Assembly (NCBI GenBank): GCA_020073545.1
Contig: JAIQEZ010000009.1
Location: 528 to 64,527, forward strand
Length of the DNA stretch: 64,000 nucleotides
Reading direction: 5' to 3'
Source: Terriglobia bacterium
GTDB taxonomy: Bacteria > Acidobacteriota > Terriglobia > UBA7540
Part shown: positions 5,370-54,884 of the stretch, piece after piece
How positions within the stretch are numbered: position 1 is the first letter of the stretch
Layout of the letters: every line of letters begins with the position of its first letter
Notes under the pieces: generated by a model
The model's database searches: none
The model's input: the letters and a program-made list of their open reading frames with translations, nothing else
What the model was told of the DNA's origin: nothing
Program-made: the position numbers and the translations under genes

Positions 5370-6794
5370 TCAGATTCCGGCGGCCTCACGGTAACGAGAC
5401 ATGTGCTCCTGGAGTTCGTGGTTGTCGGGCTCGAGCGCCAGCGCCTTGTCCTGGGTAACGACCGCCTCTCGATAGTTTCCCTTGGCAAATTGCGCTTCCG
5501 CCAAAGTATCGATGAATCCGGCTACTTTCCATTGTGTCAAGTCCACCGCGCGCTGGGCATGGGCCAGCGCGGCCTGTGGGTCGCGAAACTTGAGATCTTC
5601 ACTCGTGGCATAGAGCCACGCCAGATTGTTGTGAGCTTCTGCCATATTGGGCTCAAGGCGCAAGGCTTCCTGGTAGTGGGCGATGGCGTCGCCATAGAGT
5701 TTCTGATCCGCGTAAAGATCCGCCAGCAGGCGCTGACCCTCGGCGGTCTGCGGATTCTTCCCGAGCACAGCTTCGAAGATCTGCTGCGCTTTCGCAAGGT
5801 CTCCCTTCAACCGATAAGCCATGCCGAGCCCGAGGCGGGACTGGGGATCGCCCGGACTTAGACGCTCGGCTGCCTCAAACTCCTGAATGGCCTGGTCGTA
5901 TTTCCTCTGCGCGAGGTAAAGGGCGCCCAGTTGCTGGCGCGGCCGCTCATCGCGGGGAGCTCTGCGCGCCGCTTCCTGGAAACTCTGGAGCGCGCGATCG
6001 TATCGCTGGGCAGCCTCGAAGCGAGCGCCTTCCACCAGCAGGCCGCTCACGGCCTGGGAAGTCCGGTAATGGTCCAGTGTCGCACCCATAGCGAAGAGCA
6101 CTACCACGAGTGGGAGGGCAACGATGGCTTGAGAAGGGGGCTCGGCAATTTCTCCGGGTGGGAGATCATGTCCGGGCGGGGCAATAACCAGAGCCAGCAG
6201 GACGCCGCTCGCCAGCCCGCCCAGATGTCCCCAGTTGTCAATACCGCGCACCGAGAATCCGAAGGCCAGATTCACGACGATGAAGGGAATCATTCCTCTG
6301 CCGAAAGCCCTGCCCCAGCGGGGAGGAATCACGTCACGGTGAAGGTAACCGGTGACCAGCATCGCGCCGGCAACACCGAAGATGGCTCCGGATGCCCCGG
6401 CGGCGATGTTATTCGAAATGGTCATGGAGAGGAGCGCGCTGCCAATCCCCGTGGCAACGTAAATCGCGGCATAGCGGCCGTAACCATACACGCGTTCCAG
6501 GATAGGCCCCAGGATATAGAGAGCGTAGCTGTTAACCAATAAGTGAAGCCAGCCGATGTGAAGGAACATCGGCATGACCAGCCGCCAGTACTCGCCTCGC
6601 CGAAGGTAGGGACCGTAAGAGGCGCCGAAGTCGAGTAGAATGCCGGGATTTTTCGATCCCCCGGCGAGGGTCTCCAAAACGAAAAGCAGGCCGTTGACCG
6701 CCAGGATGGCGAGTGTGGCGACGGGCCAGTAGCGCTGCGGGGCTACCCTGTCGTCGTGCCGGCCAGCGGGCGAAATCAAAGGTTGCTCGGCCAT
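5370..6794 (-). CDS. Rhomboid-family intramembrane serine protease fused to C-terminal TPR repeats
   Basis: WRLVMPMFLH, GASGAIFG (GxSG catalytic Ser) and HLGG (catalytic His) lie within about 6 TM helices. The C-terminal ~230 aa are TPR-like (AxxxYxxAL.L.P repeats). Confidence 0.85.
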   Translation of the reverse strand: MAEQPLISPAGRHDDRVAPQRYWPVATLAILAVNGLLFVLETLAGGSKNPGILLDFGASYGPYLRRGEYWRLVMPMFLHIGWLHLLVNSYALYILGPILERVYGYGRYAAIYVATGIGSALLSMTISNNIAAGASGAIFGVAGAMLVTGYLHRDVIPPRWGRAFGRGMIPFIVVNLAFGFSVRGIDNWGHLGGLASGVLLALVIAPPGHDLPPGEIAEPPSQAIVALPLVVVLFAMGATLDHYRTSQAVSGLLVEGARFEAAQRYDRALQSFQEAARRAPRDERPRQQLGALYLAQRKYDQAIQEFEAAERLSPGDPQSRLGLGMAYRLKGDLAKAQQIFEAVLGKNPQTAEGQRLLADLYADQKLYGDAIAHYQEALRLEPNMAEAHNNLAWLYATSEDLKFRDPQAALAHAQRAVDLTQWKVAGFIDTLAEAQFAKGNYREAVVTQDKALALEPDNHELQEHMSRYREAAGI

Positions 6795-13455: not shown

Positions 13456-15780
13456 TTACGCGCGTTCGGGAGAAACCGCCGTGAGTTCGAATTGCACCTG
13501 CTGCTTGCCCAGTTGCGGGTGCGTCGCCGTAAGCTTCACCGTTCCCGGTTGTTCTTTGGCGCGAATCCAGATGGCACCCGTGCCGCCGATCAGGGCGAAG
13601 GGATTATCTCCGATGATTTCCGCAGGGCCGTCGAGTTCCAGTTTAATCGCGTCATTCGCAAATGGCCTGATGGCACCGAATTCGTCGGTCACGCGAAGGA
13701 CGACGCGGGTTGTGTCGGCTCCGTCGGCGTTTAATTTGGTGTCGTCCGGAAGCAGTACAAATTTCTGGTCTACTCCCCTTCCCGACAACGTTTTGGAGAT
13801 CACTTGCTTGCCTTGGAGGAAGCCGTCAATGCGCAAGTCTCCCCAATGGTTCACTGCCCTCGACAAATCAGCGACAAACGGCGCATAGCGGAGATGAGCG
13901 AAAGTCTTTGTGTCCGGATCGACTTCCGCGACCAGCTTGTCGGCAATATAGAACTTGAGGTGATCGCAGTTGGAGCAGACGACGGCCTTGGAGAATCCGA
14001 TGGACTCATCGCCTCTAGCCCAGTGGAAAGCCGGCTCGAGCGCGACTTCTTCCGCGGGATCGCACTGCGACTTGTAGAACCCGGCAGCGGGTTTGGGTTC
14101 GCGGAAAATATCGGTCACGCCGTGATAGCAGATGCGCTCTCCGCTACCGAAGTCAGCGTGCGTGTTGTAATCGAACGCGCACCAGCCGATGCCGCCGGCA
14201 TATTGCGGATTAGAAGCAAGTTGGTCGTGAATACGCGCGTGGCGCAGGGTATGTTCAGTGAGGCGTTCCACCTGGTCGATGGTCTTGGTGGGGTAGGTGT
14301 GACCGACGAATTCCGTGTTGAGATAGCGCGGGTGGTTCGGCGGTTTCAAAGGGAATCCGAAATCGTTCATGGTGAAGACATCTTCGAGAAATTCGGATTC
14401 CTGGAAGTAGCGGATGCCCCCTGTCTGACGAGTGGGATCGAGGCGGTGAGCTAGGGCGTTGGTGCGCGTGTAAAAGCCGTGGTCGTCCAAGGACTCGTTG
14501 ATGCGCACACCCCACAGGATGACGCTGGGATGATTCCAGTCGCGGCGGATCATGCGGCTGACGTTATCGATGGAGATCAATTTCCAGGGTTCATCCCCGA
14601 TGTGCTGCCAGCCAGGAATTTCCTCGAGCACCAATAGACCGAATTCGTCGCAGGCGTCGAGAAAATGGCGGGATTGCGGATAGTGCGAAGTACGGACGAT
14701 GTTGCACTTGAGTTTGCGGCGCAGAATGTCCGCATCTCTGCGCTGGACGCGGCCAGGCATGGCCTGTCCGGCAAAGGGGAACGTTTGATGACGGTCAAGG
14801 CCGCGGAGCTTGATGACTTTGCCGTTCAGTTCGAAACCGTGATCAGTGAATTGCGCTTCTCGAAAGCCAACAGTGCGCGTGTCGGAATCCACCAACTGGG
14901 TTCCGCGCAAGAGACGGACATGCACGGAATAAAGATTCGGGCTGGCGAGGTCCCAGAGTTTGATTGCGCCGAGTTTGTCCAAGTGGACGCTGTGAGCCAC
15001 CGGTTCGGTTGCGGCGTCCGAGGGCGAGATGGGCAAAGAGCCATTGGCGATGACGCGATCGCCGTCACGAAGATCAACCTCCAGGGTGAGGGGTTCCTGG
15101 GACGCTTCCAAGGGCATGAGGAAACAGTCAACGTCGAGAGACGGATGAGGGGTGAGAACGTCCTTGGGCTTTGCAAAAATGTTTTCGATGAAGGTGCCGG
15201 GAACGATGCGGAGTGAAACTTCGCGATAGATGCCACCAAATGTGAGGTAGTCGATTTGAAAACCGAAGGGCGGGATATCGGGCCGCTCGCGGGAGTCCAC
15301 GTCGACCGCCAGTACGTTTTCTCCATCGAAGTCGAGGTGAGGGGTGAGGTCAAAGGAAAAAGGCGTGTAGCCGCCTTTGTACTCGCCGAGGCGCACGCCA
15401 TTGATCCACACGGTAGAAGCGGTCATCACGCCTTCGAAATCAACGAAGACGTGGTTGCCCTTCGCTTCTGTCGGCAATTTGAAGCGGCGGCGGTAGAGGG
15501 AGACGAACTCATAAGATTTGTCGTCGAAGCTGTGCCAGGGCAGACGAGCATTGGTGTGAGGAATCACGACACGCTCGAATGCCGAGTCGTCGAACTCCCG
15601 CCGGTGTCCGCCTTCGACAAACGATTTGTTGTATCTCCAATTGCGGGTGATGGGAAGAACCAACCGTCCGTCAGACTTGGAGCCGGCCGGGAGAGGGGGA
15701 TTGCCCGCCAGTATGCGGGGAGCAAGAGTGGCGCCAGCGATTGCTGTGGTTGTGGCTTTGAGAAAGTCGCGTCGTTGCAT
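13456..15780 (-). CDS. Glycoside hydrolase family 2 enzyme (beta-galactosidase/beta-mannosidase type) with Tat signal
   Basis: 774 aa. The N-terminus MQRRDFLKATTTAIAGATLAP is a twin-arginine signal. The NHPSVILWGVRINES acid/base region and the multi-domain GH2 layout are present. Confidence 0.85.
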   Translation of the reverse strand: MQRRDFLKATTTAIAGATLAPRILAGNPPLPAGSKSDGRLVLPITRNWRYNKSFVEGGHRREFDDSAFERVVIPHTNARLPWHSFDDKSYEFVSLYRRRFKLPTEAKGNHVFVDFEGVMTASTVWINGVRLGEYKGGYTPFSFDLTPHLDFDGENVLAVDVDSRERPDIPPFGFQIDYLTFGGIYREVSLRIVPGTFIENIFAKPKDVLTPHPSLDVDCFLMPLEASQEPLTLEVDLRDGDRVIANGSLPISPSDAATEPVAHSVHLDKLGAIKLWDLASPNLYSVHVRLLRGTQLVDSDTRTVGFREAQFTDHGFELNGKVIKLRGLDRHQTFPFAGQAMPGRVQRRDADILRRKLKCNIVRTSHYPQSRHFLDACDEFGLLVLEEIPGWQHIGDEPWKLISIDNVSRMIRRDWNHPSVILWGVRINESLDDHGFYTRTNALAHRLDPTRQTGGIRYFQESEFLEDVFTMNDFGFPLKPPNHPRYLNTEFVGHTYPTKTIDQVERLTEHTLRHARIHDQLASNPQYAGGIGWCAFDYNTHADFGSGERICYHGVTDIFREPKPAAGFYKSQCDPAEEVALEPAFHWARGDESIGFSKAVVCSNCDHLKFYIADKLVAEVDPDTKTFAHLRYAPFVADLSRAVNHWGDLRIDGFLQGKQVISKTLSGRGVDQKFVLLPDDTKLNADGADTTRVVLRVTDEFGAIRPFANDAIKLELDGPAEIIGDNPFALIGGTGAIWIRAKEQPGTVKLTATHPQLGKQQVQFELTAVSPERA

Positions 15781-45426: not shown

Positions 45427-47583
45427 ATGAGTGAAGCCGGAGAGAAGTCTCTCAAACTCAAAGTCAGCGAGGCCCTCAGCAAGGACGTGAGCCGGGCTTA
45501 CGCCCGCTTGGGGCCGGAGGACCTCGCGCGCTTGCAGATCGATGTCGGCGACATCGTGGAAGTGGTGGGCAAGGGCAGGACGGTCTGCAAAGCGATGCCG
45601 GCTTACAAGGAGTTGCGCGGTCAGTCCCGGATTCAACTGGACGGACTCACGCGCGAGAATGCCGGGACAGGGCTCGATGAATTCGTTCGAGTGCGCAAAA
45701 TTGCGTGCCCGCCCGCCGAACGCGTGGTGCTGGCCCCCACGAACGTTACTCCTTCCGAGCGCGATTTGGATTACATCGGCAGCCGCCTCGATGGCCTGCC
45801 TGTCCTAGCCGAGAACCGCATCCGGGCCATCCTCTTTGGCGCCCGCTGGGCGGATTTTAAGGTGGAAAGCACCGTGCCCAAGGGTCCAGCCCTCATTCAC
45901 CCGACGACACAACTCGTGATCTCCAAAGGGGCTCAATCCGAAGAGGTGTCCGCCCGTGCGATTTCCTACGAAGACATCGGCGGACTGAGGCCCCAACTCC
46001 AGCGCATCCGCGAAATGATTGAGCTCCCCTTGCGTTACCCCGAGGTCTTCGAACGCCTGGGGATTGATGCGCCAAAAGGTGTGCTTCTGCACGGACCTCC
46101 CGGATGCGGAAAGACGCTTATTGCCCGGGCGATTGCCCATGAGACCCAGGCGAACTTTTTTGCCGTCAGCGGGCCCGAAATCATCCATAAGTTTTACGGG
46201 GAGAGTGAAGCCCATTTGCGGAAGATCTTTGAAGAGGGCAGCCGCAAGGCCCCCAGCATCATCTTCCTGGATGAGATCGACGCCATTGCCCCGCGACGCG
46301 AGCAAGTCGTGGGCGAGGTCGAGAAGCGGGTAGTCGCCCAGCTCTTGGCGTTGATGGACGGGCTCGCCAAGCGCCGGAAGGTTATCGTCATTGCCGCGAC
46401 CAACCTGCCTAACATGCTCGATCCGGCTTTGCGGCGGCCGGGCCGGTTCGACCGCGAGATTGCCATCCCCATTCCTGACCGTAACGGACGGTTGCAGATC
46501 CTCGAGATTCACAGTCACGGCATGCCTCTCGCCGAAAAGGTGGACTTGAATCACTTGGCGGAGATCACGCACGGTTTTGTGGGGGCCGACCTCGAAGCTC
46601 TTTGCCGCGAAGCCGCGATGATCTGCCTGCGGCACATCATGCCTGACGTGGACTTTGGCTTGGCGCAGATTCCTTATGCGCAACTGGCCAAGCTCGAGGT
46701 GGGAATGGACGATTTCCTGGAGGCCCTGCGGGATATTGAGCCTTCGGCGCTGCGCGAAGTGTTTGTGGAGGTTCCCGACGTGCACTGGAACGACGTCGGG
46801 GGGCTGGCCGAGGTCAAACAGCGCCTCGTGGAAGCCGTCGAGTGGCCTCTCCAGCACCCGGAGCTGTTCACCCAGGCGGGGATCCGGCCACCCAAGGGAA
46901 TCCTGCTATCGGGCTCCCCAGGCTGCGGAAAAACTCTCCTCGCTAAAGCGGTTGCCAGCGAAACCAAGGTGAACTTCATCTCCGTCAAAGGGCCGGAATT
47001 GCTCTCCAAGTATGTGGGGGAATCGGAGAAAGGCGTGCGCGAGGTATTTCGCAAGGCGCGCCAAGCCGCTCCCTGCATCGTTTTTTTCGATGAGATTGAC
47101 GCCCTTGTGCCCAGCCGGAGCGCTGGATCGTCCGACTCGCACGTGGCTGAGCGTGTCCTGAGCCAGTTTCTCGCGGAATTGGACGGGGTGGAAGAGCTGA
47201 AAGGAGTCTTGGTTCTTGGCGCGACCAACCGTTCAGACCTGCTGGATCCCGCTGCTCTCAGGCCCGGCCGGTTTGACGAGATTGTGGAAATTCCGGCCCC
47301 CGACGAGGAGGGGCGCCGCGAGATTTTCGCTATCCATCTGCGAAACAAACCTCTCGGCCGGGGCATCAGCGTGAAGGAACTGGCCTCCCGAACTGACGGG
47401 TTCGGCGGCGCCGACATCAGTTCGGTTTGCACTCGCGCCGCTCGCCGCGCCGTCCGGCGAGCCGTTCAGGCGGGCGAAAAAGCACCCGCCGACAAGGTGC
47501 GGGTGATTATCGAGGTCAGCGACCTCGAGGCGACGCTGGAAGAGACTCGCCAGCAGACTCTCAAAGAGATTGGTGAACGGTAG
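45427..47583 (+). CDS. Cdc48/VAT-like double-ring AAA+ ATPase
   Basis: 718 aa. The CDC48_N-like N-domain (LKLKVSEA...DVGDIVEVVGKGRTVCKAMP...IQLDGLTRENAG) is followed by two AAA modules with GPPGCGKT and GSPGCGKT Walker A motifs. Confidence 0.9.
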   Translation: MSEAGEKSLKLKVSEALSKDVSRAYARLGPEDLARLQIDVGDIVEVVGKGRTVCKAMPAYKELRGQSRIQLDGLTRENAGTGLDEFVRVRKIACPPAERVVLAPTNVTPSERDLDYIGSRLDGLPVLAENRIRAILFGARWADFKVESTVPKGPALIHPTTQLVISKGAQSEEVSARAISYEDIGGLRPQLQRIREMIELPLRYPEVFERLGIDAPKGVLLHGPPGCGKTLIARAIAHETQANFFAVSGPEIIHKFYGESEAHLRKIFEEGSRKAPSIIFLDEIDAIAPRREQVVGEVEKRVVAQLLALMDGLAKRRKVIVIAATNLPNMLDPALRRPGRFDREIAIPIPDRNGRLQILEIHSHGMPLAEKVDLNHLAEITHGFVGADLEALCREAAMICLRHIMPDVDFGLAQIPYAQLAKLEVGMDDFLEALRDIEPSALREVFVEVPDVHWNDVGGLAEVKQRLVEAVEWPLQHPELFTQAGIRPPKGILLSGSPGCGKTLLAKAVASETKVNFISVKGPELLSKYVGESEKGVREVFRKARQAAPCIVFFDEIDALVPSRSAGSSDSHVAERVLSQFLAELDGVEELKGVLVLGATNRSDLLDPAALRPGRFDEIVEIPAPDEEGRREIFAIHLRNKPLGRGISVKELASRTDGFGGADISSVCTRAARRAVRRAVQAGEKAPADKVRVIIEVSDLEATLEETRQQTLKEIGER

Positions 47584-48402
47584 ATGAAGAAGATTGAGGG
47601 GGCGCTCTATCTTTTTTGCTTTGCCCGCGCGGACCTCGTCGGCGAGCTCGAGGGGACGGGTGTGGATGGCCACCATCCCCTTTTCGTCCTACGAGGCTCG
47701 CCGGATCTAGGTGCGGTCGTCAGCGAGGTGCGCCTGGAAGATTTCTGCGGCCCGGTGGCGGAACTTCGAATGCAAGACCTGGCTTGGGTAGGGCCACGCG
47801 CCTTCCGCCACGAGGCCGTAGTCGAGCAGGTGATGCGTCATTCTCCCGTGCTGCCTGCCCGCTTCGGAACCCTTTTCTCATCGCAGGAAAGCTTGGCGGA
47901 ATTTCTTGCTACACATCGCAAGACCATTTCGCAGTTTCTCGAGCGGGTGGCCGACCAAGAAGAATGGTCAATCAAGGGGCTGCTCGACAGAAAGCAAGCC
48001 CTGCAGGCCCTCATGTCCGGAAGCTTGGCCGCGCAACAGGTGCAGCTTGCCGCGCTGCCTCCGGGAACCCGTTACTTTCAAGAACAGCGCATCCGATCGG
48101 CTGCGGAGAAGGAACTGAGCCGCTGGCTAAACGAAACCTGCCGGCAAGTCGCGAGCGACATGAGGAAGCAGGCTTCGGATTTCCGCGAATGCCAAGTTGT
48201 ACCTCGCGAGCCCCCAGAGAGCGGAACCGAGGTTGTGCTGAATTGGGCCTTTCTACTCCCGAGGAGTGCGACCACGGCATTTCGCTTGCGAATCGATCGG
48301 GTGAACGAAACCCATGCCACCCCGGGGCTGGTTTTCGAACTCTCCGGGCCCTGGCCCCCATATCGCTTCGTTCCTCCCCTATCGATGGGAACGGCCCCAT
48401 GA
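47584..48402 (+). CDS. GvpL/GvpF-family gas vesicle protein (copy 1)
   Basis: The N-terminus YLFCFARADL...GAVVSEVRLEDF...HEAVVEQVMRHSPVLPARFGTLF and the C-terminus LSGPWPPYRF are GvpF/L hallmarks. The ATG directly follows the Cdc48 stop. Confidence 0.85.
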   Translation: MKKIEGALYLFCFARADLVGELEGTGVDGHHPLFVLRGSPDLGAVVSEVRLEDFCGPVAELRMQDLAWVGPRAFRHEAVVEQVMRHSPVLPARFGTLFSSQESLAEFLATHRKTISQFLERVADQEEWSIKGLLDRKQALQALMSGSLAAQQVQLAALPPGTRYFQEQRIRSAAEKELSRWLNETCRQVASDMRKQASDFRECQVVPREPPESGTEVVLNWAFLLPRSATTAFRLRIDRVNETHATPGLVFELSGPWPPYRFVPPLSMGTAP

Positions 48403-49172
48403 GTTGCCTGCTTTACTGCATCTTCCGCAGCCCGGCACAGCCAAGACCCGGAATACCTCCCGGCGTCGGAGGGAAACCGGCATTCGTGGTGACGCGGAAT
48501 GGTTTGAGCGCAGGGCTTTCCGAGCTTGCGGAATCGGACCGGGTTCCTGATATCCCACAAATCCTCGCCTACGAAAGGGTGGTTGAATTCTTCTGTCGCG
48601 ACCTCACCATAATCCCCGTGCGGTATGGATGTCAGCTTGAAGACGCACGCGGGGCCCTCCGGTTGCTGGAAAGACACCGCGAGGAATACAGCGCGCTTCT
48701 CGACGAACTCGAGGGCCTAGGGGAGATGGGCATCCATCTTCTCCTCGACGGTTCCCGAGATGCAACGGAGAACGATGCACTGCCTGTCGCTCCCCAATCC
48801 TTTCCCCTTCCCTGTAGTTCCGGTGCTGCCTACCTTGCAGCAAAGCGACAACGTTATTTGGGTCTGGACCGGTTAGCCCTGCACGAGCGCTTGTTGGTGG
48901 ACGAGGTTTGCGGCTCCCTGTCCGGCCTCTTCGTCCGGCACAAGGTGGAATTTCCCGACTCGACCAGGAACCAACTGCTCTCCCTTTATTTCCTCGTGCC
49001 CCGCGGTTATGTCGAATCCTTTCGCCAAGCCGCTCGCAACCTCCGCTCGAAGGAGCCCGTCAAGCTGCTCTTGAGTGGCCCCTGGCCACCCTACAACTTC
49101 GTTCATTCCCTCGAAACGGCGATCCTGCCGCCACACGCTAGCCCCGAAAACAGCCTGCCCCTCAAAGGGTGA
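48399..49172 (+). CDS. GvpL/GvpF-family gas vesicle protein (copy 2)
   Basis: The ATG at 48399 overlaps the upstream stop (ATGA). MSCLLYCIFRS...ILAYERVVEFFCRDLTIIPVRYGC...LLSGPWPPYNF. The N-terminal half of the 518-aa track ORF is out-of-frame overlap. Confidence 0.8.
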   Translation: MSCLLYCIFRSPAQPRPGIPPGVGGKPAFVVTRNGLSAGLSELAESDRVPDIPQILAYERVVEFFCRDLTIIPVRYGCQLEDARGALRLLERHREEYSALLDELEGLGEMGIHLLLDGSRDATENDALPVAPQSFPLPCSSGAAYLAAKRQRYLGLDRLALHERLLVDEVCGSLSGLFVRHKVEFPDSTRNQLLSLYFLVPRGYVESFRQAARNLRSKEPVKLLLSGPWPPYNFVHSLETAILPPHASPENSLPLKG

Positions 49173-49358
49173 CCACTGGGGACTACCTACCCCGCAACTA
49201 GCGCCTGCATTGTATGGAGTGAATTCCTCAATGACCTGTTCCAGGTGCAACAATTCTCCCCGCGATGGCGCCTTTCTCTTTCGAATCAAGCTTTTCGGGA
49301 GGGAAGTATGCACTTTACGCAAGGGGTCGGCTTTCTAGCTAGCATGGCGCACCACCGA

Positions 49359-49550
49359 TTACTTCGGCCATCCCTCGGGCGGTTTCTTCTTCGCCAGCGA
49401 CTTCTTTATTGCCTGCTTCCAGTTGCCCTTAACCTTGAGGAGTTCCGGCTTTGGGCCTGGAGCGGCCTTATCCTGGCGCATGGTATTTTTGCTTTTCTTT
49501 CTCCGGTTATTTATGGGCTTAGGAAACATAGTACTTTTGTACCTTGACAA
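49359..49550 (-). CDS. Possible small basic hypothetical protein
   Basis: A 63-aa Lys/Arg-rich ORF in the lower-GC insertion. No motif was recognised. Confidence 0.25.
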   Translation of the reverse strand: MSRYKSTMFPKPINNRRKKSKNTMRQDKAAPGPKPELLKVKGNWKQAIKKSLAKKKPPEGWPK

Positions 49551-49710
49551 GCCCCTTGCGTCCCTTGTACTCTAAAGACGCTTCCAAGGCTTGTGCGTCC
49601 GATGTTCCGCTAATCGGGCTTCGGCCACAACACAAAATGTATGCCTCTCCAATAAAATGAAGAGGTTTACGTAATAAAGGGGGCCAATCCAATGAGCCCC
49701 CATTTTTATT

Positions 49711-50232
49711 TCACGCCTGTTTTCTCTCAATTCGAGCACGGATCGTTTCCAAGTCCAAAAACTTATTCGCAACGTTGATTAGGTCGTTAGAGATCGATCC
49801 CTTTCGACCAACAATGGTGACGACCTTTCCGATTGCGCGCAAGTGGCCAATGACCGGAATATAGTCGCTATCGCAGCCCATCAAGACAATTTCATCGTAA
49901 GTGTTGGCCTCGGTAAGCAACCTGAAAACCAACTCGATGTCCAGGTTCCCCTTGATCCTCAGGGGAACATCCGATGTCTCACTTTTGATGACTCTGACTT
50001 CCTTGTCCACAACGCTATAACCGATGCTCTGTAAGGCTGTCTTGAAATGACGATATTTTGTAACTCTCTCTGAGTCGCCAACCGGCGGCGTTGCAGTGAA
50101 ATAGTAAGCTGCGGCCTTTTCCTTGTTATCCGTAAAAAAGTTAAAGACCAAGCGCCAGTCAATATGCCAGTGATTGTCTCGCTGGGCATAGAACATGTTG
50201 GCTCCATCTACAAACAGTCCTACTCTTTGCAT
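49711..50232 (-). CDS. NYN (LabA-like/DUF88) domain protein, putative RNase
   Basis: MQRVGLFVDGANMFYA...DIELVFRLL...IVLMGCDSDYIPVIGHLRAIGKVVTIVG is the NYN pattern. The start is set at ATG 50232, which is preceded by ggagga. The upstream part of the track ORF is antisense to a tRNA. Confidence 0.8.
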   Translation of the reverse strand: MQRVGLFVDGANMFYAQRDNHWHIDWRLVFNFFTDNKEKAAAYYFTATPPVGDSERVTKYRHFKTALQSIGYSVVDKEVRVIKSETSDVPLRIKGNLDIELVFRLLTEANTYDEIVLMGCDSDYIPVIGHLRAIGKVVTIVGRKGSISNDLINVANKFLDLETIRARIERKQA

Positions 50233-50315
50233 TTTGTTCCTCCAAGGCGGCGGGACTTCCAAGGCCCGTACCTCATGGGGTATTATATCAGAGTCAGCCA
50301 TTAGAGTCCTCCTGT

Positions 50316-50399
50316 GCGGGGGTGGCGGAACCGGCAGACGCAACAGCCTTGGAAGCTGCTGGACGCAAGTCCGTGCGGGTTCAAATCCCGTCCCCCGCA
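50316..50399 (+). tRNA. Type II (long variable arm) Leu-like tRNA; hand-folded anticodon UGG
   Basis: Hand fold: acceptor GCGGGGG/CCCCCGC (7 bp) with discriminator A; D-arm GCGG-AACCGGCAG-ACGC; anticodon stem ACAGC/GCTGC (A:C mismatch at the top) with loop CTTGGAA; 15-nt variable arm with a GGAC/GTCC stem; T-arm GCGGG-TTCAAAT-CCCGT. No encoded CCA. Confidence 0.8.
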
Positions 50400-50400
50400 C

Positions 50401-51360
50401 TCACCTAACAAGTGGCTCTTTGTACATCAACCGCCTTCCCTCAGCCGCTTTAATCGCTATTACCGTGCGCTCTCCGTCGTTCAGCCCACGGTTATTCCAC
50501 AGAAAGTCGAACTGCCACAAGTAGCGGTGCAAGTATTCCTTGCTAACGTTGTGATAGATTCCCGCGATTCCGCGCTTGATGATGGCGAAAGATGATTCCG
50601 CCGTATTTGTGTGCGCCGTTCCCCGGACGTACTCTCGCTTGCTGTGCCGGACTCTTCGATGGCCGCCAGCAAACTCTTTCCCAATGCCGTCATAGGCGGA
50701 GAAATCGTCTGTGAAAATCCGCGCATTCGGATCGACTACTTCCCGAATGGCTGCCTTGAGAGTCTTGCCGCTAACATCAGCAACCACGCGCCGTCGGATT
50801 TCACCTTGCCGCTGCACAGCCGCGAACACCGGCGTCTTTCTCGTACCGCGTCCCGGCAGGCTATGCCCACGATAGCGCGGTTTGCCGCCCACATAGGTTT
50901 CATCACATTCGACCGTGCCCGTTAGTTTGGGTGCCGTGGCTTGATCTGGGGCCATCGCAAAACGAATCCGGTTCATAAGGAATAGCGCCGACTTGTAACT
51001 GATCTGACAATGCCGCTTGATCTCAAGGGCAGCCACACCTTTCTTCGATGTGGAAGCACGCCAAAACGCATAGCACCAGTGGCGAAGGTCAAGACGGCTC
51101 TCTTCATACACCGTGCCAATACGCACCGTGTATTGCCCCTTGCAATCATGGCAGCGCCAGAGAAACCGCTTGTTTCGTTTACCGCTGGCCGCATCAGTCA
51201 TCTTATAAACCGCCACGCTTCCGCAATGGACGCACGCGGGAGTCTGTCCCCAGCGCAGTTCTTCCAAGAGTTCCACCGCAGCCAATTCATCTGAGCAAGC
51301 CAGTGGAATCTGCTCCACAGTGACGGACCTTGATAGGTTGTGTCGTTTCTCGTTTTCCAT
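50401..51360 (-). mobile_element. IS1595-family (ISXO2-like) transposase gene; IS ends not defined
   Basis: 319 aa. An N-terminal zinc ribbon (CVHCGS...WRCHDCKGQYTVRIGT) is followed by a DDE_Tnp_IS1595-type domain (VECDETYVGGK...IFTDDFSAYDGI...HNVSKEYLHRYL). The stop codon abuts the tRNA 3' end. Confidence 0.85.
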
Positions 51361-51606
51361 GGTCTAATGTTATACATAACACAAGCCTTGTGTCAAGTAA
51401 AAAATGGAGTCTCCCCCACGCTTTTTAGAGTGTATTGTAAAGTTTCTTGATTACTGATATAAGTGTCACAGGTCTACTCGATTCTTCGTCTGTGAGGACA
51501 TCATCTTGGACCTCGGCGACGAAGCGTAAAGACTAGATATATCAGCCCGCCGATGCCCCCCACGACTACATAGAAGGAGAAGTATTCCTCATCGAAATCA
51601 TTACCC

Positions 51607-52437
51607 ATGAACAAGACAGAACTCGTATCCGCACTTTCGGCCCTGGGAACTTGGATACAAGTATTCGGAGTACTTGTAGCGATTGGAATTGTCGGCGAAG
51701 TTGGCGTTGGTGTTCGGAGTTGGATACTCAATAGAAGGTTGCAGGCCATCGAGCGCGTCGAGGACATGGAACAACGGACGGAAATAGCTCGATTAAACCG
51801 AGAGGCTGGAGATGCCCGTAAGGATGCAGCGCTCGCGATAGAACGCGCAAGCAGTGCTGAAGAAAACCTAGCTGGAGCAAATGAGCGAGCTGCACTAGCC
51901 GAACAACATGCCGCAGAGGCAAGCGCCAAAGCGGAAGGGTTCCGTCTTGATATTGCTAAGGCCAATGAACGTGCCGCAGATGCCAACCGAATTGCGGAGC
52001 AAGAAAGACTTGCTCGACTCCAACTAGAAGCTAGGCTTGCGGATCGAGTCTTGACCCCCGACGGGCAATCCCGGCTCACAGCCTTGGCCGCTACCTTTCC
52101 GCATGGCACTCGGATCGACATATTCATGTTCGGCGGCACCTTGGAGATTGCCAATATTACCCAATCAATCAATAAGTCATTGGCAGCCGGGGGCTGGACG
52201 GTACGGCAGTGGCAAGTAACCGGGGGAGGAGCCGTTCGTGGAATATTGGTCGGCACTAACCCCAGTGCCGATGCCGCGACAGCCCGAGCCGCTTCTGGGA
52301 TTATCTCCACGTTAGTTTCGGCAGGGGTAGGCGCAGGCCCTTGGAAGTTCGATGAGTTGGTCATGAGTGGAATGGCGCAGGGACCGGGCGAGCCGATGGA
52401 CGCGCCCATAAGAATGTTCATCGGCAGCAAGCAATAG
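51607..52437 (+). CDS. Hypothetical membrane-anchored coiled-coil protein
   Basis: 276 aa. An N-terminal TM helix (WIQVFGVLVAIGIVGEVGVGV) is followed by an Ala/Glu/Arg-rich coiled coil and a globular C-terminal domain. It is preferred over the low-complexity antisense ORF 51501..52490. Confidence 0.6.
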   Translation: MNKTELVSALSALGTWIQVFGVLVAIGIVGEVGVGVRSWILNRRLQAIERVEDMEQRTEIARLNREAGDARKDAALAIERASSAEENLAGANERAALAEQHAAEASAKAEGFRLDIAKANERAADANRIAEQERLARLQLEARLADRVLTPDGQSRLTALAATFPHGTRIDIFMFGGTLEIANITQSINKSLAAGGWTVRQWQVTGGGAVRGILVGTNPSADAATARAASGIISTLVSAGVGAGPWKFDELVMSGMAQGPGEPMDAPIRMFIGSKQ

Positions 52438-52528
52438 AAAATCCCACCAACAGTCCAAATTAGGACACTACGTCCTTGCGTAAAGTGCATACTTCCGTTT
52501 CGGGAAACCCACCGATACTGAACTCGCG

Positions 52529-53792: not shown

Positions 53793-53867
53793 CATTAAGT
53801 CTCCAACAGCCGGGATGCGGGTTAAGCTCCGACGAGCTCGAGATGCTTGGAGAGAGGGAAAAACACG

Positions 53868-54884
53868 ATGAATGGTGACGAGGCGAAGGATGTCCTGGTG
53901 GCCAGCGAAGTAGTCGAACCCCAAGGACACAGTATTGTGCTTGAGCCCAGCGATGAGTTCGTCTTGACCCCGCAGATCAAGGCGCTGGCAGACAGGGCGC
54001 TGAGCTACCTGGATGTCGGATACGCGGTCCACTTCGCAGGGCCGGCAGGCACGGGAAAGACGACCCTCGCCCTGCACGTGGCTGCGCAGATCGGTCGGCC
54101 GGTTGTCCTCATCCATGGCGACGACGAATTTGGCAGTTCCAACCTGATTGGCAAGAATTCCGGCTTCCGCACGTCCAAGCTCATTGATAATTATATTCAC
54201 TCCGTGGTGAAGACCGAAGAAAGCTTGAGCACGCTTTGGGAGGACCATCAGCTCACCACCGCCTGCCTCGACGGACACACCCTCATTTACGATGAGTTCA
54301 ACCGTTCCCGGCCCGAAGCCAACAATGTGCTCCTCAGCATCCTGGAAAAGAGGATTCTCAATCTGCCTAGCCTGCGCCGGTCCGGTGAGGGGTACGTACA
54401 TGTACACGAGAACTTTCGGGCCATCCTGACGTCGAACCCTGAGGAATATGCCGGCGTCCACAAGACGCAGGACGCGCTGGTGGACAGGATGATTACCATC
54501 GACCTCGGACATTTCGATCGCGAAACGGAGATTCAAATCACCAAGGCGAAGTCAGGCATTCCCACCGAGGATGCCGAAAGGATCGTGGACATTGTCAGGG
54601 AGCTCCGCGGGGTGGGTGTGAACAACCACCGCCCCACGATTCGGGCCTGCATCGCCATCGCCAAGATCCTTTCCCGCCGCAATGGGCGCGCCCAGATAGG
54701 GGATCCCACCTTTTGGTGGGTATGCTGCGACGTTCTCAAAACGGACACGGCCAAGGTTACTCATGATGGCCAGTCACTTATGTTGGGGAAGGTGGAAGAG
54801 GCGATCAGGAGAATCTGCGGGAACCATGGGAACGGCAACCATGCGAAGCGCCGAAAGAATCACCACCGGGGCGCTACGGCCTGA
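53868..54884 (+). CDS. gvpN: Gas vesicle AAA+ ATPase GvpN
   Basis: YAVHFAGPAGTGKTTLALHVAAQIGRPVVLIHGD...LIYDEFNRSRPEANNVLLSILEKRIL is the GvpN/CbbQ-type pattern. The start could be 53847 or 53868. Confidence 0.9.
   Translation: MNGDEAKDVLVASEVVEPQGHSIVLEPSDEFVLTPQIKALADRALSYLDVGYAVHFAGPAGTGKTTLALHVAAQIGRPVVLIHGDDEFGSSNLIGKNSGFRTSKLIDNYIHSVVKTEESLSTLWEDHQLTTACLDGHTLIYDEFNRSRPEANNVLLSILEKRILNLPSLRRSGEGYVHVHENFRAILTSNPEEYAGVHKTQDALVDRMITIDLGHFDRETEIQITKAKSGIPTEDAERIVDIVRELRGVGVNNHRPTIRACIAIAKILSRRNGRAQIGDPTFWWVCCDVLKTDTAKVTHDGQSLMLGKVEEAIRRICGNHGNGNHAKRRKNHHRGATA

Follow-up and report, generated by a model that had tools for sequence, protein, structure and literature searches.

What purpose does a transfer RNA (tRNA) with the body of a leucine acceptor and the anticodon of a proline acceptor serve inside a bacterial insertion sequence? 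The question is raised by a stretch of 64,000 nucleotides (nt) from a Terriglobia bacterium (Acidobacteriota; assembly GCA_020073545.1, contig JAIQEZ010000009.1, positions 528 to 64,527), hereinafter the window, in which a first-pass annotation, made from the letters alone, had noticed such a gene at 50316-50399. We find that this gene is carried by a complete insertion sequence of the IS1595 family and that it belongs to a cassette in which the sequence of a single anticodon loop recurs in three parts: the tRNA itself, the leader of a gene for a NYN-type nuclease and, as the complement, a predicted small RNA (sRNA). The explanation that we prefer, and to which we give roughly even chances, is that the cassette is an RNA-level control or addiction circuit built around this one loop, with the sRNA, the promoters and the specificity of the nuclease all being predictions from sequence. 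The parts of the putative circuit are the following.

50316-50399, + strand: class II tRNA, 84 nt, with a leucine-type body, anticodon UGG (50350-52) and loop CUUGGAA (50348-50354), from ARAGORN, Rfam and the family alignment
49711-50232, - strand: gene for a NYN/LabA-type (PIN-like) nuclease of 173 amino acids (aa), Pfam PF01936, 87.3 bits, full length
50250-50269, - strand: hairpin ACGGGC-CUUGGAA-GUCCCGC in the leader of the NYN mRNA, from the sequence and covariation among clades
50282-50290, - strand: predicted extended -10 promoter of the NYN gene (TGATATAAT), TGnTAnnnT being kept here in most loci
49580-49705, + strand: predicted sRNA of about 125 nt, convergent with the NYN gene, from conservation, fold and strand-specific pairing
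49544-49573, + strand: predicted sigma-70 promoter of the sRNA, with TTGACA, a 16-18-nt spacer, a TAnnnT-like -10 and 6-8 nt to GCTTCC

The tRNA and its family

Is the 84-nt sequence a tRNA at all? ARAGORN makes a single tRNA call in the 64-kb window, tRNA-Pro(tgg) at 50316-50400(+), and the Rfam model RF00005 covers 50316-50399 over its full length with 53.6 bits (gathering score 29, E=1e-8). Read from the sequence, the acceptor stem is GCGGGGG/CCCCCGC, with 7/7 pairs and the discriminator A; the D arm is GUGGCGGAACCGGCAGACGC; the variable region of 15 nt (U GGAC GCAA GUCC GU) forms a 4-base-pair (bp) stem with a GCAA loop; and the T arm is GCGGG-UUCAAAU-CCCGU. The geometry is accordingly 7/5 (a 7-bp acceptor stem and a 5-bp T stem), and CCA is not encoded in the gene, the discriminator being followed by CTC. 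All the cloverleaf features described in the first-pass annotation, namely the length of 84 nt, the 7-bp acceptor stem, A73, the Leu-type D arm, the 15-nt variable arm and the T arm, are indeed present, and the anticodon UGG with A37 that it had drawn within the loop CUUGGAA is recovered by ARAGORN (the anticodon) and by the Rfam fold (the 7-nt loop). Folding with the covariance model, the check that might have undone this assignment, yielded neither a standard Leu or Ser anticodon nor a pseudogene call. The A:C mismatch at 27:43, also noticed at first pass, is the sole non-standard pair of the Rfam fold; it is common to four loci with an identical tRNA (the window, L015/L030 and L059), the pair is standard in most other family members (for example, A-U in L005 and C-G in L001/L003), and the mismatch is a variant of one lineage.

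The family alignment is more telling. A covariance model was built from 12 sequences, and 42 distinct members, from 60-odd loci, were aligned. Standard pairs are formed in 99.0% of the 1005 pair cells; in 18 of the 24 pairs both partners have changed, and each of the five helices contains compensatory changes; none of 500 shuffles attains the observed pairing values; and sliding the pair partners by 1-3 columns causes pairing to fall to 40-50%. Fitting the alignment to the covariance model introduces some bias towards structure, yet the raw sequences, too, clearly show the compensatory changes of the acceptor and anticodon stems. The discriminator is A in 41 of the 42 members, that of the window included, and G18G19, the T loop and the 7/5 acceptor/T geometry are kept across the family. 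The sequence of 84 nt is thus no pseudogene but a real tRNA that is under selection. The degenerate tRNA that the first-pass annotation had offered as an option has to be abandoned given the strong covariation and the loop, which is held invariant even in loci reached via the NYN protein or the transposase.

The family is scattered over many genomic contexts. Contigs with homologues of the NYN protein (65-98% identity; Terriglobia, Ca. Acidiferrales metagenome-assembled genomes and soil metagenomes) all contain a divergent 'tRNA-Pro(tgg)' of 83-86 nt, in genomic surroundings that differ from one another, and a DNA pattern scan retrieved 21 tRNA loci from a metagenome collection and 31 loci from a set with one genome per species, against about one expected by chance. 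The loop is invariant in the loci retrieved via NYN homology. One locus, found only via transposase homology (L108-L117), has the loop UUUGGAA, which lies outside the DNA search pattern, with UGG, A37 and A38 kept; the UGG anticodon is therefore conserved without the search imposing it. BLAST searches with the tRNA produced no match in E. coli genomes, one weak match among plasmids and, among phages, matches of about 79% identity that were all to ordinary tRNA-Leu and tRNA-Ser. A subset of the family (L029, L036, L040, L043, L044, L055, L056 and L060) has variable arms of 26-33 nt, far above those of ordinary tRNA-Leu or tRNA-Ser, with the common inner motif CCU.U..UAAAGGA.AAC; ARAGORN misses most of this subset, and the inner motif might be a protein-binding module.

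To which amino acid does the body point? When E. coli tRNAs are scored with the family covariance model, leuT (77.2 bits) and leuZ (76.3) come far ahead of serT (53.5), tyrT/V (46.2) and proM, the Pro-UGG tRNA (43.3), which bears out the Leu-type body proposed at first pass. The proM tRNA is of class I, with the loop UUUGGGA, G37, C1:G72, A73 and a 5-nt variable loop, whereas the window tRNA has G1:C72, A73, A37 and a 15-nt variable region. Compared with tRNA-Pro, its UGG conforms to NGG (G35, G36), but the class I body, G37 and C1:G72 are all absent; compared with tRNA-Leu, it has the class II body, the Leu-type D arm and variable arm and A73, but the anticodon is not of the Leu type (NAG/YAA). 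The discriminator A73 is a determinant for leucyl-tRNA synthetase (LeuRS) in E. coli. The likeness to the bacterial tRNA-Leu exemplified by leuT and leuZ extends to an almost identical D arm, equal length and a long variable arm; the differences are the anticodon and the location, in an insertion sequence rather than in core tRNA operons. On this sequence evidence, the tRNA descends from tRNA-Leu, with a fixed UGG/A37 anticodon loop.

One anticodon-loop sequence in three cassette parts

The cassette spans 822 bp (49580-50401): nucleotide homology among the NYN-linked loci starts at 49580 and stops at about 50401. A sequence of 9-11 nt is common to its three parts, occurring in the tRNA loop, in the NYN leader hairpin and, as the complement, in the sRNA. 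The anticodon loop of the tRNA displays CCUUGGAAG, and CCTTGGAAG is found at three fixed places in all the first-fetched NYN-linked loci (L001-L006), the window having 6 copies of CCTTGGAAG against 0.71 expected. The three copies beyond the cassette sites, at 15105(-), 52339(+) and 58034(-), form only weak hairpins, and the one at 52339 lies inside the insertion sequence, antisense to an open reading frame (ORF) of 329 aa. The shared motif occurs as dispersed single copies, plus the tandem leader hairpins of one clade, in the alignments and in the repeat search, neither of which was aimed at tandem repeats.

The NYN gene, divergent from the tRNA, is present in 19 of the 21 metagenome loci. Its product also matches the PADLOC profile 'NYN family nuclease' (4.8e-14), and the acidic residues D9, D98, D121 and D123 are invariant in 24 homologues; the sole relative with a solved structure is 2qip, and an exact-protein look-up of the window protein returned nothing on record. 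A homologue at 57% identity (L011/L012) comes without the tRNA and without the motif. Within 49580-50401, there is no ORF for a VapB-like protein antitoxin. The leader hairpin of the NYN mRNA reproduces the anticodon arm of the tRNA in its 7-nt loop and C-G closing pair, which are identical, and continues with a bulge or mismatch and a stem of 4-5 bp; it closely precedes the Shine-Dalgarno sequence GGAGG (50239-50243) and stands about 24-50 nt ahead of the start codon. From clade to clade, the stem shows covariation (CGGG/CCCG, CUGG/CCAG, CGAAG/CUUCG, GGAG/CUCC). The U.G closing pair of L013 and L019 is compatible only with the NYN-sense strand, and in one clade the hairpin is doubled in tandem. 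The predicted -10 of the tRNA (TATTAT, + strand) overlaps that of the NYN gene (- strand) at 50282-50290, so the divergent promoters of the two genes may compete.

The third part is the predicted sRNA. Its promoter, with TTGACA and the same geometry, is found in 15 of 15 distinct loci within surrounding sequence that is unconserved, and the predicted transcript then starts with GCTTCCAAGGC. The first 11 nt, GCUUCCAAGGC (49580-49590), are the exact complement of nt 30-40 of the tRNA, that is, the whole loop with two pairs on each side, and of the tops of the leader hairpins; the repeat search accordingly detected a 20-nt inverted repeat of 90% complementarity between the sRNA region and the tRNA, which first resembled a decayed inverted copy of the tRNA. 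In the predicted layout, an unpaired 5' seed is followed by a domain of two helices and then by two hairpins, the last of which (49679-49701) is GC-rich and is followed by AUUUUUAUUU. Read on the + strand, the outer helix of the 5' domain counts 51 cells with a Watson-Crick pair, 11 with G.U and 3 that are unpaired, compared with 51, 1 and 13, respectively, on the NYN-sense strand; because pairing is far better on the + strand, the functional RNA is most likely the antisense transcript. In the RNAalifold consensus, pair 19:51 is UG in 6 sequences, UA in 6 and CG in 1, and the z-score of the fold is -3.7. Its predicted promoter, the complementarity of its seed to the leader hairpin and its overlap with the 3' end of the convergent NYN transcript would make the sRNA an antisense RNA of the NYN mRNA. 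Two other interpretations of this region were discarded: the G.U pattern speaks against a 3' untranslated region of the NYN mRNA containing the tRNA-like stretch on the sense strand, as do NYN-sense terminators located upstream of that stretch, and a short peptide encoded by the sRNA is at odds with the lack of conservation of AUG-led ORFs. An identical 11-nt stretch, CAAGGCTTGTG, is present in the 5' part of the sRNA, at 49585-49595(+), and just after the TTGACA upstream of the transposase start, at 51380-51390(-).

The insertion sequence and its exchangeable cargo

How did the cassette get here? The answer lies in the element that surrounds it.

49301-52497: complete IS1595-family insertion sequence, 3,197 bp, with perfect 23-bp terminal inverted repeats and 8-bp direct repeats
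49293-49300: left copy of the target-site duplication, 8 bp, TTTCGGGA, read from the sequence
52498-52505: right copy of the target-site duplication, 8 bp, TTTCGGGA, read from the sequence
49302-49324, + strand: left terminal inverted repeat, GGAAGTATGCACTTTACGCAAGG, a 23/23 match to 52474-52496
52474-52496, - strand: right terminal inverted repeat, a 23/23 match to the left repeat
50401-51360, - strand: IS1595-family transposase, 319 aa, Pfam PF12762 (127.7 bits) and PF12760, NCBIfam NF033547 (177.3 bits, cut-off 75)
51501-52490, - strand: ORF of 329 aa in a second cargo slot, between the transposase start and the right repeat, other ORFs occupying this slot in sister elements
49359-49481, - strand: small basic, lysine-rich ORF (MRQDKAAPGPKPELLKVKGNWKQAIKKSLAKKKPPEGWPK), about 40 aa from ATG, in the terminal ~160 bp of the element, a stretch also found in sister elements that lack the tRNA

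Both hallmarks of the IS1595 family are found in the window: a transposase that combines an N-terminal zinc ribbon (PF12760) with an ISXO2-like DDE domain (PF12762), and terminal inverted repeats flanked by an 8-bp target duplication, a length typical of this family. Given the perfect inverted repeats and the presence of TTTCGGGA on both sides, the element is intact and probably a recent arrival; its GC content is 0.53 against about 0.59 around it, and homologous elements on other contigs have unrelated flanks. The transposase gene converges on the tRNA, with its stop codon 2 nt from the tRNA 3' end. The first-pass suggestion that the tRNA is carried by a mobile insertion thus holds, the gene being enclosed by inverted repeats and target duplications, whereas its other suggestion, that the tRNA was the target of the insertion, does not, the gene being interior to the repeats and not at a junction. 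An integration site beside an integrase can be dismissed likewise: the neighbour is a DDE transposase, the tRNA is interior to the element, and the Pfam scan of the window detected no integrase adjacent to the tRNA. Two earlier candidates for the ends of the element had to give way to the perfect 23-bp repeats with the target duplication: one was a 9-bp repeat at 50283/51454, the other a TTGACA stretch resembling an inverted repeat at 49528-49552/51385-51405. Pairing of the anticodon loop with the inverted repeats was also considered and rejected, the GGAAG end not being conserved among elements. The transposase mRNA may be leaderless (TATAAC, 8 nt, ATG).

The association of the tRNA with insertion sequences extends far beyond the window. 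A transposase of this kind adjoins the tRNA in 18 of the 31 genome loci, in phyla named in the records as Acidobacteriota, Planctomycetota, Verrucomicrobiota, alpha- and gammaproteobacteria, 'delta proteobacteria' and Gemmatimonadota; matches to the tRNA only were additionally found in Chloroflexota, Binataceae and Acidimicrobiia. One Bryobacteraceae chromosome contains such an element twice; the copies are 100% identical for at least 2118 bp, and each has a transposase and a tRNA within 25-bp inverted repeats. A search for inverted repeats at each locus revealed a common terminal consensus, (C)GG(G/A)A(G/T)TATG(C/T)ACTTGAC.., that bounds elements of 2.1-3.2 kb holding the transposase and the tRNA, in other phyla as well, and 8-bp target duplications surround five of these consensus-ended elements. 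Duplications of 8 bp were found around tRNA-containing elements at L043, L048, L063, L064, L007, L016 and L019/L034. Furthermore, other Terriglobia loci have a second backbone for the tRNA-NYN module, with an IS1-like transposase, inverted repeats GGTAGTGnnnCAGTTTGA and 8-bp duplications. The tRNA is, then, cargo of insertion sequences of the IS1595/IS1 superfamily.

This cargo is not obligatory. Sister elements in which the transposase is 75-78% identical lack the tRNA and contain in the slot either a gene for an Eco29kI-type restriction endonuclease with a 225-aa ORF or two small ORFs, and the IS1-like element in L005 contains BglII and MT-A70 genes besides the cassette. The cassette is thus exchangeable cargo, in a slot that holds a restriction-endonuclease gene in at least one sister element. 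Because the sister elements from 2/3 Verrucomicrobia-type and both Terriglobia-type transposase relatives have no tRNA, the tRNA is cargo of only some lineages. The terminal ~160 bp, with the small basic ORF, are also present in sister elements without the tRNA.

Competing explanations and known systems

Could the three parts of the cassette work together? In the circuit that we envisage, the tRNA, the NYN gene and the sRNA would be a self-contained module in the cargo slot of the element. The NYN protein would be an endoribonuclease or an RNA-binding protein specific for the CUUGGAA stem-loop, and it would find a dedicated substrate or decoy in the tRNA; the leader hairpin would be an autoregulatory operator, akin to the tRNA-mimicking thrS operators; and the sRNA would mask the loop on both the tRNA and the leader by base pairing, in the manner of an antisense (type I) antitoxin. 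The partner that is harmful if unchecked could be the nuclease or else a long-lived tRNA, possibly charged with Leu yet reading Pro codons.

Several observations weigh against this circuit. Elements in other phyla have the tRNA without NYN or sRNA, so the circuit cannot be the general reason for which the tRNA rides on elements, nor the sole role of the tRNA. The leader hairpin is missing in L010, and the window copy of the tRNA has the A:C mismatch at 27:43. Most of the wider collection was obtained with a DNA pattern that fixes the loop, so that the invariance of the loop there is partly by construction. Finally, a 2017 survey (PMC5499597) describes the LabA-type NYN group as one without any biochemically characterised member, demonstrated nuclease activity or known substrate. 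In three NYN-less elements (L041, L044, L047), a strong hairpin with a CUUGGAA loop is present within 160 nt of the tRNA, and hairpins of this kind near the tRNA number 5 in 24 loci, where 1.06 would be expected; perhaps, in the NYN-less elements, the transposase or a host factor reads the conserved loop. The hairpins that stand beside a tRNA and a transposase, with no NYN gene, are at 4213-4239 in L041 (9 bp) and at ~5885-5910(-) in L047 (6 bp). In L044 (2150-2400), upstream of the class II tRNA(UGG), a 7-bp hairpin with a CCUUGGAA loop is followed by a 75-nt tRNA-like sequence that ARAGORN calls tRNA-Leu(aag).

A bolder proposal, which we regard as doubtful although worth spelling out, would make the tRNA itself the effector of a selfish module: a long-lived, Leu-charged tRNA that reads Pro codons, is borne by insertion sequences across phyla and, in Terriglobia, is checked by two loop-reading antidotes, the NYN nuclease, which would sense the copy of the loop on its own mRNA, and the sRNA, which would pair with the anticodon. 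If this were the case, loss or silencing of the element would result in proteome-wide Pro-to-Leu mistranslation, and we would be dealing with a tRNA toxin that has an 'anti-anticodon' antitoxin; the cassette may then be categorically new. A related but distinct explanation, which builds on the idea of the first-pass annotation and which we consider rather unlikely, holds that regulated proteome-wide Pro-to-Leu mistranslation is the main function, with LeuRS ignoring the anticodon, Leu being inserted at CCA/CCG codons, and the NYN protein and the sRNA merely limiting the level of the tRNA. The Leu-type body (84 nt, as in leuT and leuZ minus the CCA) and the near-universal A73, which together with the 7/5 geometry, G18G19 and the T loop suggests a constraint to fit the tRNA machinery, are what such a decoder would need; A37 in place of G37 separates the window tRNA from canonical tRNA-Pro; and an anti-anticodon sRNA is the design to be expected for silencing a decoder. 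There is, moreover, a report that an engineered tRNA-Ser(UGG) mistranslates in yeast (PMC6827378). The codons of the elements themselves point in the other direction. Among 16 tRNA-linked transposases, CCA and CCG (CCR) codons in conserved columns fall at Pro-majority columns in 60 of 74 cases and at Leu-majority columns in 0, which implies that the element relies on CCR being read as proline. These conserved prolines argue against efficient Leu-for-Pro recoding, which seems somewhat disfavoured as the main role, and Pro-to-Leu recoding of the transposase found no support, with CCA/CCG never at a Leu-majority column. It is also hard to square a strongly toxic decoder with tRNA-only elements that have no visible silencer in many phyla.

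The same codons are what one would expect if the tRNA were a working proline tRNA in an unusual body, charged by prolyl-tRNA synthetase (ProRS) via G35, G36 and A73 and decoding CCA/CCN for the element genes, as phage-borne tRNAs do. We give this only a small chance. That CCA accounts for 31% of the Pro codons in the element genes and 28% in the 16 linked transposases, against 10% in 19 host ORFs of the window, is a weak hint in its favour, but the codon numbers are small and may merely track the lower GC of the element; another weak hint, the C1:G72 with A73 seen in L048, L049 and L054 as in proM, is countered by G1:C72 in most members, the window included. A37 and the long variable arm are found in all members, the family model scores proM at 43 bits and leuT at 77, and the mimic hairpins and the anti-anticodon sRNA would be left unexplained. 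A similarly small chance goes to roles in which translation plays no part: the tRNA gene might damp the transposase in cis, as a promoter, a source of antisense RNA or a terminator, or the folded RNA might bind the transposase as a cofactor. In most elements the tRNA converges on the transposase, with 2-60 nt from the tRNA 3' end to the stop codon, so that read-through from the tRNA would be antisense to the transposase mRNA, and in tRNA-only elements no protein other than the transposase is at hand to recognise the loop and the mimic hairpins. However, the tRNA is upstream on the same strand in L036 and L038, downstream on the same strand in L037, L039 and L047, and far from the transposase in the IS1-like elements; this variation in order and orientation argues for a role in trans, and a plain cis role requires no full cloverleaf, A73 or fixed anticodon. 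As for a tRNA-Leu pseudogene in decay or a leftover integration site, the A:C pair at 27:43 and the missing CCA of the window copy are what could be cited for it, but the 99% of paired cells and the compensatory changes in all five helices among 42 distinct sequences, the invariant loop, the position interior to the element and not at a junction, and the absence of an adjacent integrase in the window leave this explanation with next to no probability.

The putative control circuit combines traits of several known systems. PIN-fold VapC toxins cut specific tRNA anticodon loops; the NYN protein resembles them in its PIN-like fold (PF01936), with the acidic residues D9, D98, D121 and D123 kept, and differs from them in that its gene has no adjacent gene for a protein antitoxin. 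As in type I toxin-antitoxin systems, both those in which a convergent antisense RNA overlaps the toxin transcript at its 3' end (bsrG/SR4 and txpA/RatA of B. subtilis) and those with a nuclease-type toxin such as SymE, a small antisense RNA, here predicted, converges with a putative toxin gene and has a seed complementary to the leader near the ribosome-binding site, but the candidate toxin is a 173-aa NYN nuclease rather than a small membrane peptide, and a third partner, the tRNA, bears the target sequence. The thrS operator is likewise an mRNA leader hairpin that copies a tRNA anticodon arm, but the NYN protein is not a synthetase. If the nuclease proves to be loop-specific, it would provide the first substrate for the large LabA-type NYN family and a compact, programmable pair of RNA recognition elements. 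More generally, the Terriglobia cassette is a testable case of three RNAs tied together by one anticodon-loop sequence: a tRNA, its mimic in an mRNA and its complement in an antisense RNA.

The tRNA family sits within a known class, that of identity-mismatched tRNAs associated with mobile elements. The tRNA-ProA family is paired with a dedicated ProRS, and an accessory gene stands next to the tRNA as in the window. Nematode nev-tRNAs, the Streptomyces tRNA-ProA/ProX (PMC10404621) and the engineered tRNA-Ser(UGG), for which mistranslation is known or has been proposed, share with the present family the disagreement between body identity and anticodon, but they are class I Pro-type bodies with non-Pro anticodons, or else eukaryotic, and in the literature searched no natural or engineered anticodon-mismatched tRNA is reported as insertion-sequence cargo or together with a nuclease and an anti-anticodon RNA. 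The closest described counterparts are the allo-tRNAs of Acidobacteria and other phyla, together with further irregular tRNAs located near toxin-antitoxin genes and transposons (Mukai et al. 2017, PMC5389517). They are class II tRNAs with an anticodon-body mismatch, found near mobile elements or toxin-antitoxin genes, and that paper regards them as possible suppressors and/or RNAs with a regulatory task; the allo-tRNAs differ in having a 12-bp acceptor branch (8/4 or 9/3), selenocysteine-tRNA-like D arms and serine identity, where the window tRNA has 7/5 geometry, a Leu-type D arm and A73. A term search of the paper detected neither a UGG anticodon nor NYN nor tRNA-Leu, and an antisense sRNA or IS1595 cargo is not described in the section considered here. 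With its wide distribution and canonical 7/5 structure, the present family joins the short list of natural tRNAs in which body and anticodon disagree, and precise sequences are now available for charging and decoding tests.

As for the vehicle, passenger genes are known from IS1595 insertion sequences (Siguier, Gagnevin and Chandler 2009, as cited in PMC2853133), which share with the window element the zinc-ribbon and DDE transposase, the terminal inverted repeats, the 8-bp duplications and the space for passengers, but a tRNA gene as recurrent cargo is not reported in the literature searched. Nor did that literature contain an account of this tRNA family, of an IS1595 element with a tRNA or of the trio of NYN, tRNA and antisense RNA, although such absence is not proof of novelty. 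That simple insertion sequences of many phyla should repeatedly carry a tRNA gene that is under selection is unusual and raises the question of what use a tRNA is to a DDE transposon.

The window element is inserted in a gas-vesicle gene region, between genes for a CDC48-like AAA ATPase and GvpL/GvpF on one side (45427-49172) and a GvpN-like AAA_5 ATPase on the other (53847-54884), the 8-bp duplication being located about 120 nt past the GvpL/F stop codon. The 329-aa ORF (51501-52490) has no match in Pfam, NCBIfam or PADLOC, and in sister elements the second slot contains other ORFs (265 aa, 559 aa) in its place. Among the IS1-like elements, the inverted repeat GGTAGTGGTACAGTTTGA occurs twice at one end of that in L005, at 9799 and 9866, 67 nt apart, and L017 contains a pair of IS1-like repeats 0.8 kb apart (1450/2242) that has the look of a miniature derivative.

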